NCBI GenBank assembly: GCA_012838635.1
Contig: DUOW01000005.1
Coordinates: 15,555-79,554 of the forward strand
Reading direction: 5' to 3'
DNA from: Acholeplasma sp.
GTDB lineage: Bacteria; Bacillota_I; Bacilli_A; ML615J-28; CAG-698
DNA: 64,000 nt
The notes under the pieces were generated by a model. It had not been told where the DNA came from and did no database searches. It saw only the letters and a program-made list of their open reading frames with translations. This document shows positions 519 through 46,319 of this stretch, one piece after another. How positions within the stretch are numbered: the first letter of the stretch is position 1; each line of letters starts with the position of its first letter. The position numbers and the translations under genes were made by a program.

Positions 519-2423
519 TTACTTTCTTAATTTAATTTCTTCTTTTATTTGTTTGATAAATTCTTTTAAACTTACAGTTGTTTGTTCTTGGCTACCATAC
601 TTACGATAAGTTACTGACTTATCCTCTACTTCTTTATCACCAATTACAATTTGATATGGAATCTTTTTTGTTTGCGCTTCTCTAATTTTATATCCTAATT
701 TTTCATCACGATAATCACTTTCAAAATTAATTCCTTGTTTTAAGAATTCCTTTTCTAGTTTTCTTACATATTTGCTATGAAGATCAAGATTAACTGGAAT
801 TAATTTTACTTGAACTGGAGCTAGCCATGTTGGGAAAGCACCACCATAATGTTCAATTAAGATACCAATAAATCTTTCTAGCGAACCATAAATAGCACGA
901 TGTAGCATAACTGGTCTAACTTTTGAACCATCTTCAGCTACGTATGTTAAGTCAAACCTTTCTGGTAAGTTCATATCTAACTGAATTGTCCCGCATTGCC
1001 AAATTCTGTTCATTGAATCTCTAATCTTAAAGTCTAGTTTAGGACCATAAAAGGCACCATCACCAGGATTTAATTTATAGTCTTTTCCAGCTTTCTTACA
1101 AGCTCTTGCTAAAGCTTTTTCTGAATAATCCCAAATTTCAATTGAACCAATATATTTATCAACCGGTCTTGTAGATAGTTCAATATGGTATGTTAAACCA
1201 AATGTGCTATAAATCTCATCAAATAATTTAATTAAACTTACAACTTCTTTTTCAATTTGGTCTTTTCTCATAAAGATATGGGCATCATCTTGAGTAAAAG
1301 ATCTAACTCTAAATAAGCCAGATAAAGCACCACTAGCTTCATATCTATGAACTAGTCCTAATTCTCCTACTTTCAAAGGAAAATCACGGTAAGAATGAAT
1401 ATCGCGTTTATAAACTAACATTCCCCCTGGACAGTTCATTGGTTTAATCGCAAACTCTTTGTCATCAATTTTAGATGTATACATATTTTCTTTATAGTTA
1501 TACCAGTGTCCAGAAATCTCCCATAAGTCCTTACTTAACATAATTGGTGTTACAATAAACTCATATCCTTCTCTTTTATGAACTTTATACCAATAGTCTT
1601 CTAAGTTCTTTCTTAGAGTTAACCCTTTTGGTAAATAGAAAGCAAAACCAGGACCATATTCACTAATCATAAATAGATCTAATTCCTTACCTAATTTACG
1701 GTGATCCCTTTTAGCTCTTTCTTCTAAATCGTGTAGATGACCATCTAACTCTTCTTTAGAAAAGAAACATGTACCATAGATTCTTTGTAATTGTTTGTTG
1801 TTTGAATCTCCTCTCCAGTAAGCACCACTAACACTTAATAGTTTAAAATGTTTTAATAAACTAGTATTAATTACATGAGGCCCTCTACATAAATCTAAAT
1901 AATCGCCTAATTTATAAATTGTAATTACTTCACCTTCTTCAAGTTCATTAATTAACTCTTGTTTATAAGGACAATCTTTAAAAACTTCTAAAGCTTCTTT
2001 TTTAGAAACTTCTTTTCTTTCAAAACTATAGCCTGCACCAACTTGTCGATTCATTTCTTTTTCAATAACTTTTAAAGACTCTTCATCAAACTTCTCACCA
2101 TCTAAATCAACATCATAGTAAAAACCTTCTTCAATTGCAGGTCCAACGCCAAATAAAGCTTTTGGATAAAGCTTTAAAATAGCACTAGCCATTAAATGAC
2201 TACAAGAATGTCTTAATACTTCTAATGCTCTTTCATCATCTTTTGTAACAAGTTCTAATGTAGCATCTTTTAAAATTGGTCTTTTTAAATCATAGGCCTC
2301 ATCATTTACTAAAGCATAGACAGAATTTTTTAAAAGCCCCTTAGAAATTGAACTAGCAATATCATAGGCATTTATTCCCTTTTCATATTCTTTTATTGAT
2401 CCGTCTAAAAATTTAATTTTCAT
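519..2423 (-). CDS. thrS: threonyl-tRNA synthetase
   Basis: 634 aa with a TGS-like N-terminus, class II aaRS core motifs and an anticodon-binding C-terminus. It lies downstream of a Thr T-box leader. Stop codon is TAA. Confidence 0.95.
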   Translation of the reverse strand: MKIKFLDGSIKEYEKGINAYDIASSISKGLLKNSVYALVNDEAYDLKRPILKDATLELVTKDDERALEVLRHSCSHLMASAILKLYPKALFGVGPAIEEGFYYDVDLDGEKFDEESLKVIEKEMNRQVGAGYSFERKEVSKKEALEVFKDCPYKQELINELEEGEVITIYKLGDYLDLCRGPHVINTSLLKHFKLLSVSGAYWRGDSNNKQLQRIYGTCFFSKEELDGHLHDLEERAKRDHRKLGKELDLFMISEYGPGFAFYLPKGLTLRKNLEDYWYKVHKREGYEFIVTPIMLSKDLWEISGHWYNYKENMYTSKIDDKEFAIKPMNCPGGMLVYKRDIHSYRDFPLKVGELGLVHRYEASGALSGLFRVRSFTQDDAHIFMRKDQIEKEVVSLIKLFDEIYSTFGLTYHIELSTRPVDKYIGSIEIWDYSEKALARACKKAGKDYKLNPGDGAFYGPKLDFKIRDSMNRIWQCGTIQLDMNLPERFDLTYVAEDGSKVRPVMLHRAIYGSLERFIGILIEHYGGAFPTWLAPVQVKLIPVNLDLHSKYVRKLEKEFLKQGINFESDYRDEKLGYKIREAQTKKIPYQIVIGDKEVEDKSVTYRKYGSQEQTTVSLKEFIKQIKEEIKLRK

Positions 2424-14635: not shown

Positions 14636-14803
14636 TAAAAAAGCTCGTGAAAATCTCCACGAGCAAAAACAGATCTATTATAATAGATTCTTCTTTCATC
14701 TAGACTGTTACTATCGGTTTTGGAGTTGCACCAAATCATGATTCTAAACGAACCTCGCAGACTTTACTGCCGGTCGGGAATTACACCCTGCCCTGAAGAT
14801 TTA
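14636..14803 (-). promoter_or_regulatory. FMN riboswitch (RFN element) with intrinsic terminator
   Basis: Minus strand reads CTTCAGGGCAGGGTGTAATTCCCGACCGGCAGTAAAGTCTGCGAGG ... ACAGTCTAGATGAAAGAAG, matching the conserved RFN core. Followed by the hairpin GCTCGTGGAGATTTTCACGAGC and TTTTTT (14636-14666). Confidence 0.9.
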
Positions 14804-14815
14804 TTAAGATAGTCT

Positions 14816-20171: not shown

Positions 20172-20322
20172 AATAAAAAAACGCATAACTAAAGTTATAC
20201 GCTTAATCACTCCTATGAGGTTAGCTGACGGGTTCAGGCAATTAAGTTGCCTTACGCTTTAATTAAGCGATTCGCCCCAAGACTTTGGTCCCCCACCCGA
20301 ATGATTCGGAGTTCATTATCAC
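20172..20322 (-). promoter_or_regulatory. cyclic-di-AMP riboswitch (ydaO/kimA class) with intrinsic terminator
   Basis: Minus strand reads GAACTCCGAATCATTCGGGTGGGGGACCAAAGTCTTGGGGCGAATCGC ... CCTGAACCCGTCAGCTAACCTCATAGGAGTG. This matches the ydaO conserved blocks (GGGGACC.., GGGG.GAATCGC, CCCGTCAGCTAACCTC.TA.G). Followed by the terminator GCGTATAACTTTAGTTATGCG + TTTTTTT (20174-20203). Confidence 0.85.
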
Positions 20323-39050: not shown

Positions 39051-39824
39051 TTAAACCTCTATTATAGGTAATGATTGATATTGTCTTGCAATATAGATAT
39101 CTCCTTTAAAATTTAAAGGTTTAATAATATCTCTTGCAATCTCTTCATCACTATTACATTCTTCAGAAACGTGAGCTAAAACAATTACTTTAGTTCTGGA
39201 AGTTAAATGCTCTTTAAGTAAATGATATGTAGCAGTATTACTCATATGTCCTTGGGCACTTAAGATTCTATCGATTAACATTTGGTGTCGATCACTGTTA
39301 ATTAAAGTATCAATATCATGATTAGCTTCAATTACTAAAGCATCAGTTGCTTCTAAAAGTGAAGTATACTTTTTTGGGAAAATACCTGTATCAATAGCAA
39401 TCATCAATGTTTTTTCTTCACAAATAAAACAATAACCAAAACAAGGAAAATCATGAACAAGTTGTAATGGTACAACAGAAAAGTCTAATATATTATATAA
39501 AGCATCAGCTTCTAATACTTTAGTATTTTCTAAAGAACTATAATATTTATATTTTGCATCTAAATGCTTATGTGTATCTAAACTTGCATAAATTGTGGCA
39601 TTAGTTTGTTTTAGAAATTGTGTTAACCCATATATATGATCAATATGACTATGTGTTAAAAAAAGAGCATCAACCTTATTTAAGTCAATTCCTAACTTTT
39701 CTGCCTTGTCTTTAGCTTTAGTATAAGCTATACCTATATCAACTAAAATCTTATGATTCTTAGTTTCAATATAAATACAGTTTCCTTTTGATCCACTAGC
39801 TAGTACTACAAACCTCATCTTCAT
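39051..39824 (-). CDS. MBL-fold metallo-hydrolase (YycJ/WalJ-like)
   Basis: HSHIDH motif and an overall beta-lactamase fold pattern. Confidence 0.7.
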   Translation of the reverse strand: MKMRFVVLASGSKGNCIYIETKNHKILVDIGIAYTKAKDKAEKLGIDLNKVDALFLTHSHIDHIYGLTQFLKQTNATIYASLDTHKHLDAKYKYYSSLENTKVLEADALYNILDFSVVPLQLVHDFPCFGYCFICEEKTLMIAIDTGIFPKKYTSLLEATDALVIEANHDIDTLINSDRHQMLIDRILSAQGHMSNTATYHLLKEHLTSRTKVIVLAHVSEECNSDEEIARDIIKPLNFKGDIYIARQYQSLPIIEV

Positions 39825-39910: not shown

Positions 39911-42595
39911 TTAATCAAGATGTGCTTTATAAATTAAAGCATCTTGTCCATCTTTTAATACAATTCCTAAGAACTTTTGATAGTCTGCATTTGAGAAATC
40001 TGCTTCTTTAAAATCAAATGTTAGTCCTTTTTGTTTAGTAGTTAGGATATGGCTATTGTTCTTAGTAGCATCTTCTTTAAGACCTTTTAACCAGAATTCA
40101 GCAACTGTCTTTTGATCTGAATCTTTAATTGTATCGCCGTTTAGATACTTTGTAGCAAGTTCAAATGTTGGGAATGTGTATTCAACATCATCAACTTTAT
40201 AAGTTGCAAGTGGATATGTCTTAGTATTTACATAAACATGATAACCAAATTCAGTTACTAAGTGTTCCCCAATTGCTACTGTTACGCCAAAGATTTGGTC
40301 TTCAGTACTATCAGGATTTAAATCCCAAACTTTTTTAACACCTTCATTAAATGCTTCTACCATTCCGCCAGATTGTCCTGGAAGTTTATATTCAAAAACA
40401 TTTAGGTTTTCATATTTAACTTTTAGACCTGCAGTCTTGAATTTAGAAACATCAATCATTCCATCTAAATCATATTCCATATCATTAATTGTAAAGACAG
40501 GTTGTGAAGCAGCATCTTGAGGTAAGTGTGCTTGGAATAAAGGTGCATCAGTAAATGCTTGGGTAATCTTATCAAATTGAGCTTTGTAATCACCTTTAGC
40601 AACTAAGTAAGCTTGTACTTGTGCATATAACTCTTCTGCAAGTTCGATTTGTTTTGGAGTCCAATCTTTTGGATCTACTAATTTTTCATTATCGGCAGTT
40701 GAATTTTCTTCATCTACAATATAGATTAATAAATGATAACCACTTACTTTATAATATTTGTCTTTAACATTTTCCATATTTTTCATATAATACTCAGTCC
40801 AAATTGGATCAGTTTCACTAATTAATGAAAAATCTGTATATGGTTTAGTAGCTTCAGCTGATAATTGTTCATATAACAATCTAATTTTTACTTCATCTTC
40901 ATTGTTAGCTTGGAATCTATATTTCATATAGTCTGACCAAGACATATAAGCTGAATAGTTTGCATATTGAGCTTTCTCATCGGCGAACTTAGTTTTGATT
41001 TTAGCCCATGCTTTTTTATCTAATACTCTTTCATTTTTCACATCATAAATCTTATTAATCTCAGGATTGTTTAGTACTCTTTGGAAATTAATTTCATTAA
41101 TAGCTACATTCATTCCATAGTCGTTATTTAATTTATGATAGAAATCTTCTACTGAATATTCAATATCACCAAACTTAGCAATTAGATCTTTGCTTCTAGC
41201 TTTGCTTGTTTCAAATTCAGCTTTATGTGTATTTGCTTGTGATTTATAATAAGTTTCAATTTCTTTATCATATAAAACTAAATCTTTTGTAGCACGTAAG
41301 TGATACATTGCTTTAGTTACGTAAGATGAAGTAAGTGTATCTTTCTTTAACTTTTCAATAACTTTATCTTGAACTTCTTCTAAAGTTGGTTTAGAAATAG
41401 TTTTAATTTTGATAAATGAGACAAACTTTTTACCACTATCTAAAGACATAAAGTAGTTTTTAAACCATCTTTGGTCTTTATCTACTACTGATGTTTCTGA
41501 ATCATAAGCTTTAAAGTTCATTACATCTGATAATACAGCAGTACCGATAGCTTTTAATTCATCTTCAGTATACAATAAAGCATTCTTTGGATCATCACTA
41601 ATCTCTCCATCTTCATCTTTAATAACTTCTTGGTGGAAAACATAATGACCATCAGCATCAATAGTGTATTGTACACCTTCTTTTAATGTTAATGTTTCTG
41701 TTGGATAATCAGTTACTTTATAACTATTTAATGTATTATATAAATCAATAAAAGCTTTGATTGTTTCTTCTCTTGTTAGTTCTTCTTCAGCTTGTTCTTC
41801 ATTAGGAATTTTTACCCATTTAGTATAAGAATCTGGGATAAGAACACCATTTTCGTCTTTTTCTTGATCTTTAATTTTATATCCTAATTGTTCTAAAGCT
41901 GAATAAGCTTCTTTACGTGTTGGATATTCAATTATAAGTGCGAAATATGTATCTTTGTATAATGAATTATATTTAGTTTCAATTGCAGATTTAGTAAAAT
42001 ATTTTTCTGTATCATCTTCAGCTTCAGCATCTTTTTCTTCAATTTCTTTTTCTAAGAAATCAGCTGCATAAGCTTTCTTTGCAAGTTCTAAATGATAGTA
42101 TTCTTTAATTTTCGCTTCTGTTCGTAAGCCTTGAATATATCTTGCATCATAGAATTTTGCTTCAGCTTCAGCTTTTTCTTCGGCTGTTGCTTTATCTAAA
42201 TCTAAATCTTTATACATTTCTTTTTCAAGTTCTTCTTGGATTTCTGCGTCTGTAACTTGAGCTAGATAATTCTTTTCACCATTTTCCAAAATTTCACGAT
42301 CTAATGTTTCAAGTAAAGCATTTACTCCATATTGATCTTTTAATAATGAATACATTTCACCTTTTGTTAAATAGTATTCATTATCTCCTTCACCTACTAC
42401 AACGTATTGGCCATCTGCATCTTTAATCATTGGCGCTTTACGATTGTTTTTTGCCACTGTTGAAGCAACTGCAATAACAACAATTACTAAAACAACTAAT
42501 ACAACAGGCAAAGTACTTAACAATATTGTTTTAGGACTTATCTTTGGCGCGTCCTTTTGTTTATTTGCCTTGTTTTTTACTCTTCTTCTTTTCAT
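39911..42595 (-). CDS. unusually large membrane-anchored PrsA/SurA-like foldase: N-terminal TM, SurA_N-like chaperone domain, long acidic linker region, parvulin-type PPIase domain split by an insertion
   Basis: 894 aa. N-terminal TM helix. The segment DGQYVVVGEGDNEYYLTKGEMYSLLKDQYGVNALLETLDREILE resembles the PrsA N-domain. Parvulin motifs SGYHLLIYIV and GGMVEAFNEGVKKV...FGYHVYV lie about 120 aa apart. Position is next to yhaM, as for B. subtilis prsA. Confidence 0.5.
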   Translation of the reverse strand: MKRRRVKNKANKQKDAPKISPKTILLSTLPVVLVVLVIVVIAVASTVAKNNRKAPMIKDADGQYVVVGEGDNEYYLTKGEMYSLLKDQYGVNALLETLDREILENGEKNYLAQVTDAEIQEELEKEMYKDLDLDKATAEEKAEAEAKFYDARYIQGLRTEAKIKEYYHLELAKKAYAADFLEKEIEEKDAEAEDDTEKYFTKSAIETKYNSLYKDTYFALIIEYPTRKEAYSALEQLGYKIKDQEKDENGVLIPDSYTKWVKIPNEEQAEEELTREETIKAFIDLYNTLNSYKVTDYPTETLTLKEGVQYTIDADGHYVFHQEVIKDEDGEISDDPKNALLYTEDELKAIGTAVLSDVMNFKAYDSETSVVDKDQRWFKNYFMSLDSGKKFVSFIKIKTISKPTLEEVQDKVIEKLKKDTLTSSYVTKAMYHLRATKDLVLYDKEIETYYKSQANTHKAEFETSKARSKDLIAKFGDIEYSVEDFYHKLNNDYGMNVAINEINFQRVLNNPEINKIYDVKNERVLDKKAWAKIKTKFADEKAQYANYSAYMSWSDYMKYRFQANNEDEVKIRLLYEQLSAEATKPYTDFSLISETDPIWTEYYMKNMENVKDKYYKVSGYHLLIYIVDEENSTADNEKLVDPKDWTPKQIELAEELYAQVQAYLVAKGDYKAQFDKITQAFTDAPLFQAHLPQDAASQPVFTINDMEYDLDGMIDVSKFKTAGLKVKYENLNVFEYKLPGQSGGMVEAFNEGVKKVWDLNPDSTEDQIFGVTVAIGEHLVTEFGYHVYVNTKTYPLATYKVDDVEYTFPTFELATKYLNGDTIKDSDQKTVAEFWLKGLKEDATKNNSHILTTKQKGLTFDFKEADFSNADYQKFLGIVLKDGQDALIYKAHLD

Positions 42596-42668
42596 ATTAA
42601 AACACCTCTTTGTATTTCACAATATTAATATTTTACCATAACTTACCAAATATATCAAGTATTTTTTA

Positions 42669-43610
42669 CTAATCTAAGTCAGGTAAATAAAATGCTCGGC
42701 GATTAAAAGCAATAACTGGTTGACTATATTCACCTTTAACCCCATCTTTTAATTCTTTTTCTAAAGCTCCCATTCTTGAATCAGCAAAGTCGCATAAAAA
42801 CACAACATATGCTTCAGGTATCGTTGGTTCTTTTGGTGAACCAAACTCTAAAAATCCATGATGAGAAATAACAATGTGCGCTAGCATTAAGTATTCCTCA
42901 GATTCTTCTAACTCTAACTCTTTTGCTTTCTCGTGTAATAAATTAGAAGTCATAACGATATGTCCTAATAAATTACCTGGTTTTGTATATTCTCCGGTAT
43001 CTTTTTCCATTTCTTTAATTTTACCAAAATCATGAAGCAAGATCCCACCATAAATTAAATCTTTATTTAAAAAAGGATAAAGCTTAATATATGTATCAGC
43101 TAAAGTAAGCATTGAATAAACATGATAAGCTAACCCAGAAACATAATTATGATGAACTGATTTAGCAGCAGGATGAACAAAAAAAGCTTCAAAATCTTCT
43201 TTTAAAACTGCTAGTACTAACTTCTTTATATTAGCATTTTCAATTTTTAAAACATAATTCATTATCTTTTCTTTTAGTTCTTCTACTGAAAACTTTGCAT
43301 ATTCAAAAAATTCTTCTAGTTTATATAAACTAGAATCTGCTTCAGCTAATTCTTTTAAATTAAATTGTAATTTACCTTGATAGTCTTTCATTTGACCTGA
43401 ACAATTATAAATTTTACCATTTTCTAAATGCTCGCGAATACTATCAGTAACATTCCAAATTTTAACTTCTAAAATTTTTTCACCATCAAATCCTAAAGCA
43501 TTAACATAATCGGCTTGACTTGTAGTTTTACGGTATTGAACATTTATTAGTCTTAAAATCAAATTATTAACTTCATCGCCTGCACGATAATCTTTAACTT
43601 TTGTTCTCAT
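42669..43610 (-). CDS. yhaM: 3'-5' exoribonuclease YhaM (OB-fold + HD domain)
   Basis: N-terminal OB fold, HD motif LLHDFGK. 313 aa matches YhaM size. Confidence 0.85.
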   Translation of the reverse strand: MRTKVKDYRAGDEVNNLILRLINVQYRKTTSQADYVNALGFDGEKILEVKIWNVTDSIREHLENGKIYNCSGQMKDYQGKLQFNLKELAEADSSLYKLEEFFEYAKFSVEELKEKIMNYVLKIENANIKKLVLAVLKEDFEAFFVHPAAKSVHHNYVSGLAYHVYSMLTLADTYIKLYPFLNKDLIYGGILLHDFGKIKEMEKDTGEYTKPGNLLGHIVMTSNLLHEKAKELELEESEEYLMLAHIVISHHGFLEFGSPKEPTIPEAYVVFLCDFADSRMGALEKELKDGVKGEYSQPVIAFNRRAFYLPDLD

Positions 43611-45574: not shown

Positions 45575-45817
45575 TTACTGAATAATATTTTGAAGTAAGC
45601 TAATAAACTCAACAAAGATATAAGCAATTAATCCCCCAACAATAATTGACACCAATAAAACTAAAGTTCTAATTTGCCAAGTAGAGCGTGCTTTAAATAT
45701 TTTTGAATAATCTACTGCTCCTAAAGCTCGGTATGTAATAATAGCAACAATAACCAAAATTACTAAAAACCAAGCTAATTTAACAATCGCTACTGTTAAT
45801 TCATCCATTGTTTTCAC
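45575..45817 (-). CDS. small two-TM membrane protein (DUF1146/YwzB-like)
   Basis: 80 aa with two hydrophobic helices. Overlaps the downstream adenosyltransferase gene by 17 nt. Confidence 0.5.
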   Translation of the reverse strand: MKTMDELTVAIVKLAWFLVILVIVAIITYRALGAVDYSKIFKARSTWQIRTLVLLVSIIVGGLIAYIFVEFISLLQNIIQ

Positions 45818-46319
45818 CTAGATCTACATATCTTCCTAATACAAAGAAATAGTCAGATAAACGATTTAAATATTTTAAAACATTACTATCCACTTTATGT
45901 TCTAAAGCATACTTAACAACTAATCTTTCTGTCTTTCTTGTTGTTGCACGAGCATTATGAACAAAAGCAGCAGCTTTAGAAAACCCAGGTAAAATAAAAT
46001 CATTTAAAGGAGGTAGTTTGCTATCAAGTAAATCTATCTCTTTTTCTAATTCTAAGATATCTTCATCTTCAATTAATGCTTTTTCACTAACAATTGAGTA
46101 ACTAAGAGTAAATAATAATCTTGTGATTTGCTCTAAATAATCTCTATATTTTTCTTCTTTCAAAAATGAACGAGCAAGCATAATTGAAGTTTGTAATTCA
46201 TCAACTGCTCCTTCGACAAAAATAACTAAATCACTCTTTAAAACTTTACCATTAACAGTTCTAGTTTCTTTGTTATCGCCTTGTTTTGTATAAATCTTGG
46301 CTTTTTTATTTTGTTCCAT
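45801..46319 (-). CDS. ATP:cob(I)alamin adenosyltransferase, PduO/YvqK type
   Basis: [12 protein letters not shown]...[10 protein letters not shown] matches the PduO-type N-terminal signature. Confidence 0.75.

Follow-up and report, generated by a model that had tools for sequence, protein, structure and literature searches.

The PrsA proteins of Bacilli are extracytoplasmic, membrane-tethered proteins of ~290–340 residues. Their chaperone (NC) domain is assembled from N- and C-terminal segments and is interrupted by a parvulin domain. PrsA functions as a domain-swapped dimer, with a crevice between its two NC domains, and the enterococcal and streptococcal PrsA proteins remain foldases although they lack the histidines (PMC12524980). 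In S. aureus and L. monocytogenes (prsA2) the prsA gene is the immediate neighbor of yhaM, and in B. subtilis it lies near yhaM (PMC3921577, PMC2731908). In Mycoplasma pneumoniae, the major dome proteins, or Mdp proteins (Mdp436, Mdp444 and Mdp489 of the MG307/MG309/MG338 family; PDB 9qgq), are large essential lipoproteins that assemble into a dome above the Sec translocon and are reported to contain an internal duplication with PrsA-like halves (10.1101/2025.04.25.650208); peptidylprolyl isomerase (PPIase) activity has been demonstrated for Mpn444 and Mpn436 (10.1101/2024.09.05.611430), and this extracellular folding machinery of duplicated PrsA units has been described as unique to Mycoplasmas. 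The present analysis concerns a 64-kb stretch of Acholeplasma sp. DNA (contig DUOW01000005.1; hereafter the window; G+C ~30%) and within it one gene, which encodes an 894-residue protein (103 kDa, pI 4.9, no cysteines). The protein very probably consists of two PrsA-type units fused head to tail and belongs to an unannotated family outside Mycoplasma; this degree of confidence applies to the best explanation as a whole, namely a tethered extracytoplasmic folding factor built of two tandem PrsA-like units.

The evidence for two units comes from structure prediction and from profile comparison (segment boundaries are given in Table 1). Residues 55–465 (unit 1), modeled alone by AlphaFold2 with a 92-sequence alignment, gave a predicted local distance difference test score (pLDDT) of 96.3 and a predicted template modeling score (pTM) of 0.86. 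In a Foldseek search of the PDB with this model the best 18 matches are all full-length PrsA crystal structures, that of B. subtilis (PDB ID: 4wo7) being first (E 2.2e-6, ~400 aligned columns); SurA also appears among the structural matches, with scores much weaker than those of PrsA. Unit 1 has the full PrsA architecture, its N and C segments forming an NC domain and flanking a parvulin-fold domain, and the four-stranded antiparallel sheet and four helices of the parvulin fold are present. Aligned by hhalign to a PrsA reference profile (4 sequences; the reference sequence was checked to be identical to 4wo7), both halves of the protein match collinearly, unit 1 with a probability of 90% (E 1.6e-6, 249 columns) and unit 2 (residues 466–894) with a probability of 96.7% (E 3.4e-10, 195 columns).

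When the N-terminal (N), parvulin (P) and C-terminal (C) segments of units 1 and 2 were compared separately, the PrsA N-domain was matched by both N1 (E 3.4e-6) and N2 (E 6.5e-5), the PrsA C-terminus by C1 (E 4.4e-5) and the PrsA parvulin by P2 (E 9.2e-7), as against E 0.25–0.32 for mismatched-domain controls. The values for C2 versus the PrsA C-terminus (E 0.28) and for P1 versus PrsA (E 0.41) are no better than these controls, nor are those for P1 versus P2 (E 0.27) and C1 versus C2 (E 0.22), so that a significant match between the two units is found for the N-domains only (N1 versus N2, E 1e-5); BLASTP of the N-terminal half against the C-terminal half is not significant (E 0.076). The duplication is therefore drawn directly from the N1/N2 match and indirectly from the separate match of each half to PrsA. 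A full-length AlphaFold2 model made with a 6-sequence alignment is poor (pLDDT 59, pTM 0.32) and is not reliable for the arrangement of the units or for residues 838–894; in it the order of secondary structures repeats twice and the best PDB matches are all PrsA. The first-pass annotation of this gene, made from the letters alone, had noted its threefold size relative to PrsA and suggested an inserted client-binding domain. The large size is instead due to a tandem copy of the whole PrsA unit, and where PrsA is a homodimer of single units, two units here share one 894-residue chain.

The relationship to PrsA is also seen in the family as a whole. In an exhaustive HMMER search covering 1.84 billion representatives, with clusters defined at 50% identity, 137 homologue clusters were found, 46 of them at E ≤ 1e-30, and a scan of one genome per species found 25 loci, all in metagenome-assembled genomes labeled Acholeplasmataceae, Mollicutes, Tenericutes or "Bacilli bacterium". 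The full-length members (n = 101) span 710–1260 residues with a median of 892; no PrsA-sized protein (~300 residues) is apparent among the family matches, the shorter ones being partial and fragment-like. Searched against the PDB, a profile of the 101 full-length members matches B. subtilis PrsA (4wo7, E 1.1e-4) and a PpiC-type parvulin (2m08, E 8.8e-4) as well as the PrsA1 parvulin domain, Par14 and Pin1, and all 22 of its matches to E = 10 are PrsA or parvulins. A 747-residue relative from a Haloplasmataceae cluster (P0144), which aligns collinearly to the family starting at residue 1 (hhalign probability 99.4%), carries a Pfam Rotamase_3 match (E 7e-17) at the position of unit 2, in the place of the parvulin motifs described below. 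This cluster is named "peptidylprolyl isomerase" by NCBI and is the exception in naming: every relative examined in the Acholeplasma-type clusters is an NCBI "hypothetical protein", as is a near-identical protein of the same 90% cluster, deposited as "hypothetical protein [Acholeplasma sp.]" (HHU20952.1). An architecture and a probable function can now be assigned to a large dark family of ~137 clusters that has no Pfam, NCBIfam or curated name in its Acholeplasma-type branch. Some longer relatives of up to 1260 residues (P0019, P0141 and others) carry extra Big_2 immunoglobulin-like domains and GBS_Bsp-like repeats, surface-type domains that are apparently inserted into the same scaffold.

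By every score the closest known proteins are the PrsA proteins of Bacilli (B. subtilis 4wo7, L. monocytogenes PrsA1/2, S. pneumoniae 5tvl and E. faecium PpiC 9ibn), which provide the best structural or profile match for both halves. The window protein departs from them in having two units, large loop insertions in both parvulins, an Ala at the Cys/Asp position of unit 2, a transmembrane (TM) anchor without a lipobox and a wall-less host, and in being invisible to Pfam and NCBIfam. Much of the first-pass annotation agrees with these results: the reading frame (which lies on the minus strand, with an ATG start and the stop codon included in the coordinates), the single N-terminal TM helix, the PrsA-N-like segment that follows it, the parvulin domain with both histidine motifs (that of unit 2), the general assignment as an extracytoplasmic PrsA-like foldase homologue and the yhaM neighbor were all correctly recognized. 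The "very long acidic middle region" that it described is indeed acidic in composition; it is however a folded region rather than a linker, lying inside a complete and confidently modeled PrsA-like unit with its own histidine-less parvulin.

Unit 2 repeats the N-segment and the parvulin domain of PrsA (residues ~466–797) and may be incomplete as a unit. Three parvulin motifs quoted in the first-pass annotation are all present: SGYHLLIYIV (residues 618–627), GGMVEAFNEGVKKV (743–756) and LVTEFGYHVYV (779–789). The parvulin active-site set in Pin1 numbering is His59, Cys113 (or Asp), Leu122, Phe125, Met130, Phe134, Thr152 and His157 (PMC12524980). Alignment to PrsA, together with Table 3 of the same paper (B. 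subtilis PrsA numbering), equates unit 2 residues H621 with His123, A684 with Asp155, L731 with Leu164, F734 with Phe167, M745 with Met173, F749 with Phe177, T781 with Thr195, F783 with Tyr197 and H786 with His200. Unit 2 thus keeps both histidines and the Leu/Phe/Met/Phe pocket, with Ala at the Cys/Asp position (A684) and an Asp (D683) adjoining it; conservation across the family is 60% for H621, 97% for G723, 76% for F749, 88% for G784 and 81% for H786. No family member has His at either of the two histidine positions of unit 1, whose parvulin resembles the streptococcal and enterococcal PrsA type in this respect. The parvulin of unit 1 also contains a conserved, confidently modeled beta-rich insertion (Table 1), to which the conserved residues Y286, N287, Q309, Y310, V319 and F320 are tied.

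The first two motifs are separated by 115 residues, which the first-pass annotation took for an insertion of ~120 residues splitting the parvulin domain. These residues hold the canonical alpha helices and the beta2 strand of a parvulin, including the segment ENLNVF, equivalent to GDLGWF (family consensus LGTF). The domain spans ~180 residues compared with ~92 in a canonical parvulin, and the ~85–90 extra residues are distributed over four variable loops (Table 1), the last of which lies past the second motif. The largest, of 31 residues, is missing from more than half of the family and has pLDDT < 50 in the full-length model; it is a variable loop and not an inserted domain. A single domain inserted in the parvulin of unit 2 was rejected on these grounds.

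With respect to function, the protein would act as an extracytoplasmic folding factor, held on the outside of the membrane by an N-terminal TM helix that stays uncleaved; there, by analogy with PrsA, it would bind unfolded exported polypeptides leaving the Sec channel and aid their folding. In a host without a cell wall, its clients would be secreted or surface proteins rather than penicillin-binding proteins. Unit 2 may contribute some prolyl-isomerase activity and unit 1 may serve as a chaperone or scaffold surface. The two linked units could stand in for the PrsA homodimer as a single-chain pseudo-dimer, and their covalent pairing could form an intrachain crevice like that of the PrsA NC domains. 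Two fused units, one without the catalytic histidines and one keeping them, amount to a natural experiment on the function of the PrsA dimer.

Several observations weigh against the explanation as a tandem PrsA foldase. The single window sequence yields only noise in Pfam, with no Rotamase-family match even at E ≤ 10, and not even a weak match in NCBIfam. The parvulin of unit 1 has no sequence signal; its profile comparisons lie at the level of the controls, and the assignment therefore comes from one predicted structure. The last ~90 residues of unit 2 give no PrsA-like profile signal and have pLDDT < 50 at 838–894. The position equivalent to Cys113 is Ala in the window protein and in 65% of the family, and because the D310A substitution at the corresponding Asp of Mpn444 lowers PPIase activity (10.1101/2024.09.05.611430), it can be argued that the isomerase activity of unit 2 may be weak or absent. 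The putative pseudo-dimer has to be set beside a sole full-length model of low pTM, and the foldase function is a prediction from sequence and models. The lack of database matches extends to other searches: the window sequence alone gave only noise against the PDB and does not reach the Pfam gathering score for Rotamase, Rotamase_2 or Rotamase_3, a 6-sequence profile (A1) matched nothing in the PDB or Pfam, and Rotamase_3 is found at E ≤ 0.01 in only 7 of 98 relatives scanned. The first-pass annotation had named a lack of significant parvulin or SurA_N hits as evidence against itself. Taken literally, this is the outcome of the single-sequence Pfam scan, and it is overturned by the profile and structure evidence described above.

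The membrane anchor distinguishes the window protein from PrsA and from many of its own relatives. Eleven Lys/Arg residues occur among the first 50, ahead of the hydrophobic stretch, and by sequence the basic tail followed by one hydrophobic helix fits an N-in/C-out signal anchor. As the protein contains no cysteine, a lipobox is impossible and lipidation is ruled out. The TM helix ends in AVAST in the clade of the window protein, compared with AVSCT in many relatives. A PROSITE-type lipobox falls within the first 50 residues in 49 of 100 full-length relatives, and that stretch is free of cysteine in 35 of them, so that lipid and helix anchors alternate within the family. The contrast drawn in the first-pass annotation between a TM anchor and the lipoprotein PrsA consequently stands for the window protein and fails for the family. 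At 42458–42595 (minus strand), the clade comprising the window protein, P0002, P0003, L001 and L002 has changed AVSC to AVAS, with loss of the sole candidate lipidation cysteine, and has gained a 19-residue Lys/Arg-rich N-terminal extension; judged from these sequences, a helix anchor seems to have recently taken the place of a probable lipid anchor.

The genomic setting is also that of prsA. The gene immediately upstream matches YhaM end to end (at 268 bits, under the NCBIfam cutoff of 460 bits), and the related loci show the recurring order yigZ, CCA-adding enzyme, yhaM, tandem-PrsA gene, MBL-fold hydrolase, uvrB, mnmA, with yhaM present at 19 of the 25 loci and the remaining contigs truncated. 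Adjacency to yhaM is typical of prsA in Bacilli, although not strict; the yhaM neighbor and the conserved order together indicate that the tandem-PrsA gene occupies the prsA slot of Bacilli. No second copy and no ordinary prsA is found within the window. Nine related genomes (L003, L005 and L008–L014) have two paralogues at the same locus, arranged in tandem or flanking the MBL-fold gene (for example L010, 5935–8610 and 9528–11969). Paralogue 1 has ~890 residues and an N-terminus of the "MNS...AVSC" type, and paralogue 2 has ~813 residues and a classical lipoprotein signal peptide. Usually the pocket set is intact in one of the two, and its partner carries Gln at 621 together with non-canonical residues at 745 and 749. 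Three contigs with the gene are labeled 'uncultured Bacteroidales' or 'Bacteroidaceae': L008 (CAYQUB010000006.1) has the Acholeplasma-type order of tandem-PrsA gene, MBL, uvrB and mnmA, with uvrB and mnmA 66–71% identical, L007 (CAZYFI010000084.1) has the tandem-PrsA gene and MBL only, and L021 has only a fragment of the tandem-PrsA gene. These contigs are probably mis-binned.

The closest architecture is that of the Mycoplasma Mdp proteins, with which homology is not established. A reading that refines the tandem-PrsA explanation and does not exclude it is that the window protein is the Acholeplasma counterpart of Mdp436/444/489, derived from the same ancient internal PrsA duplication and forming, alone or with paralogues, a ring- or dome-like folding chamber over the Sec translocon; this is possible, although we regard it as doubtful. 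The Mdps are likewise large surface-anchored proteins of a wall-less bacterium, with a duplicated PrsA-like unit (a SurA-like domain plus a PPIC domain) containing insertions, with paralogues within one genome and with catalytic residues kept in only some parvulin domains. The window protein shows the same architecture, including the internal duplication, and the paralogue pairs with an intact and a degenerate pocket recall the Mdp heterotrimer. On the other hand, membership in the Mdp sequence family (IPR022186, or homology to Mpn444 or Mpn436) was not found: searched against the PDB up to E = 10, the family profile does not pick up Mpn444 or Mpn436, no Pfam family is common to both in any scan, a third homologue search with distant members (A5) returned only close relatives of the first sequence and no bridge to Mycoplasma, and the hhblits search of the Mdp authors found Mdp homologues only in Mycoplasmoidaceae. 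The Mdps are moreover lipoproteins of 136–146 kDa, unlike the smaller TM-anchored window protein, it is the N-terminal parvulin that is conserved in Mdp444 but the C-terminal one in the window protein, and the window holds a single copy.

A broader proposal, also tentative, is that the double-PrsA architecture is not peculiar to Mycoplasma and may go back a long way in wall-less Bacilli, among them Acholeplasmatales, Haloplasmatales and uncultured kin. On this view the tandem-PrsA family, having stayed at the ancestral prsA-yhaM locus and recognizably PrsA-like, would be an evolutionary intermediate between PrsA and the Mycoplasma dome proteins and would form a comparable Sec-associated extracellular folding chamber, built from intact and degenerate paralogues. 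The same design principle is found in Acholeplasma-like bacteria, at the prsA locus and in a form much closer to canonical PrsA, which bears on the claim that it is unique to Mycoplasmas; if the two families are in fact related, the tandem-PrsA family would be the link to the dome proteins. How wall-less bacteria fold their exported proteins, and how the dome proteins arose, can now be tested.

Two other readings are improbable. A TM-anchored, catalytically silent chaperone docking on SecYEG with a partner protein would resemble E. coli PpiD, which is likewise anchored by an N-terminal TM helix and has its periplasmic chaperone domain and inactive parvulin beside the Sec channel. PpiD however scores far below PrsA in Foldseek (E 0.077, probability 0.13, compared with 2e-6) and is a single unit, half of the family are lipoproteins like PrsA, and the locus is that of prsA; the assignment was rejected in spite of the TM anchor. 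Equally unlikely is a surface protein, such as an adhesin or a structural component of a surface layer, that retains the PrsA fold but no longer assists folding. This would account for one parvulin without histidines and another without the Cys/Asp residue, and for relatives that carry Big_2 and other surface-type domains; against it, most of the family conserves the pocket and the two histidines of unit 2, the housekeeping gene order is maintained, and histidine-less PrsA proteins of the enterococcal and streptococcal type are still foldases. E. coli SurA, with a chaperone module and two parvulins of which P1 is inactive and P2 active, was rejected as a model on domain order and weak scores: SurA is soluble in the periplasm and has one chaperone module and adjacent parvulins (N-P1-P2-C), whereas the membrane-anchored window protein repeats the whole unit, (N-P-C)-(N-P-tail). 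Least likely is the arrangement of the first-pass annotation, one PrsA unit with a long acidic linker and a client-binding domain of ~120 residues within the parvulin, which accommodates the spacing of the motifs and the acidic middle and is contradicted by a supposed linker that folds at pLDDT 96 as a full PrsA-like unit, by the canonical helices, beta2 strand and variable loops found between the motifs, and by the absence of the largest, poorly modeled loop from more than half of the family.

Table 1. Features of the tandem-PrsA gene, its product and its surroundings (window positions; residues of the 894-residue protein).
Feature	Residues	Window positions	Strand	Evidence or remark
Whole gene, membrane-anchored tandem PrsA-like protein	1-894	39911..42595	minus	open reading frame list; ATG start; stop codon 39911-39913
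Cytoplasmic Lys/Arg-rich N-terminal tail	1-23	42527..42595	minus	clade-specific: only query, P0002 and P0003 in 6-sequence alignment A1
Single TM helix, signal anchor	~24-46	42458..42526	minus	hydropathy peak (one hydrophobic stretch), zero cysteines, family N-termini
Unit 1, N-terminal part of NC domain (beta-hairpin, then helices)	~58-212	41960..42424	minus	
Unit 1, parvulin-fold domain without both histidines, with beta-rich insertions	~213-402	41390..41959	minus	
Unit 1, beta-rich insertion in parvulin	296-345	~41561-41710		
Unit 1, C-terminal helices and strand completing NC domain	~403-465	41201..41389	minus	hhalign to PrsA residues 203-251, E 4.4e-5; hmmsearch domain 4 versus 4wo7
Unit 2, N-terminal chaperone segment	~466-612	40760..41200	minus	hhalign to unit 1 N-domain and PrsA N-domain
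Unit 2, parvulin domain	~613-797	40205..40759	minus	hhalign, PDB parvulin matches, residue conservation, relatives with Rotamase matches
Unit 2, loop expansion 1	~627-649			~23 residues, after beta1
Unit 2, loop expansion 2	~687-717			~31 residues, after helix 3
Unit 2, loop expansion 3	~737-742			6 residues, before Met745, confined to clade of window protein
Unit 2, loop expansion 4	~758-778			~13 residues, before beta3
Unit 2, C-terminal helical tail	~798-894	39914..40204	minus	no PrsA C-terminus signal, E 0.28
Shine-Dalgarno AAGAGGTG		42603-42610	minus	7 nt 5' of ATG; sequence read; pattern match only
Promoter-like site, TTGATA - 17 nt - TG-TAAAAT (TG-extended -10)		42630..42658	minus	consensus scan and sequence read; pattern match only
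Terminator-like GC-rich hairpin and T-run directly past stop codon		39876..39895	minus	sequence pattern
YhaM-type 3'-5' exoribonuclease, upstream neighbor		42669..43610	minus	NF010007, E 6.4e-80, residues 1-311 of 314; HD and OB domains
MBL-fold hydrolase gene, directly downstream		39051-39824	minus	257 residues, without signal peptide
DUF1146 membrane-protein reading frame		45575-45817	minus	GTG start
PduO-type cobalamin adenosyltransferase gene		45801-46319	minus	
T-box leader		2462-2663	minus	Rfam, above gathering score
FMN riboswitch		14684-14804	minus	Rfam, above gathering score
c-di-AMP (ydaO/yuaA) riboswitch		20195-20321	minus	Rfam, above gathering score

The MBL-fold gene keeps its place beside the tandem-PrsA gene in nearly all related loci, and no functional link between the two is apparent. 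Elsewhere in the window three RNA elements match Rfam (Table 1), and the DUF1146 reading frame shares 17 nt with the end of the cobalamin adenosyltransferase gene, a pair that is conserved in L002, L003 and L006.

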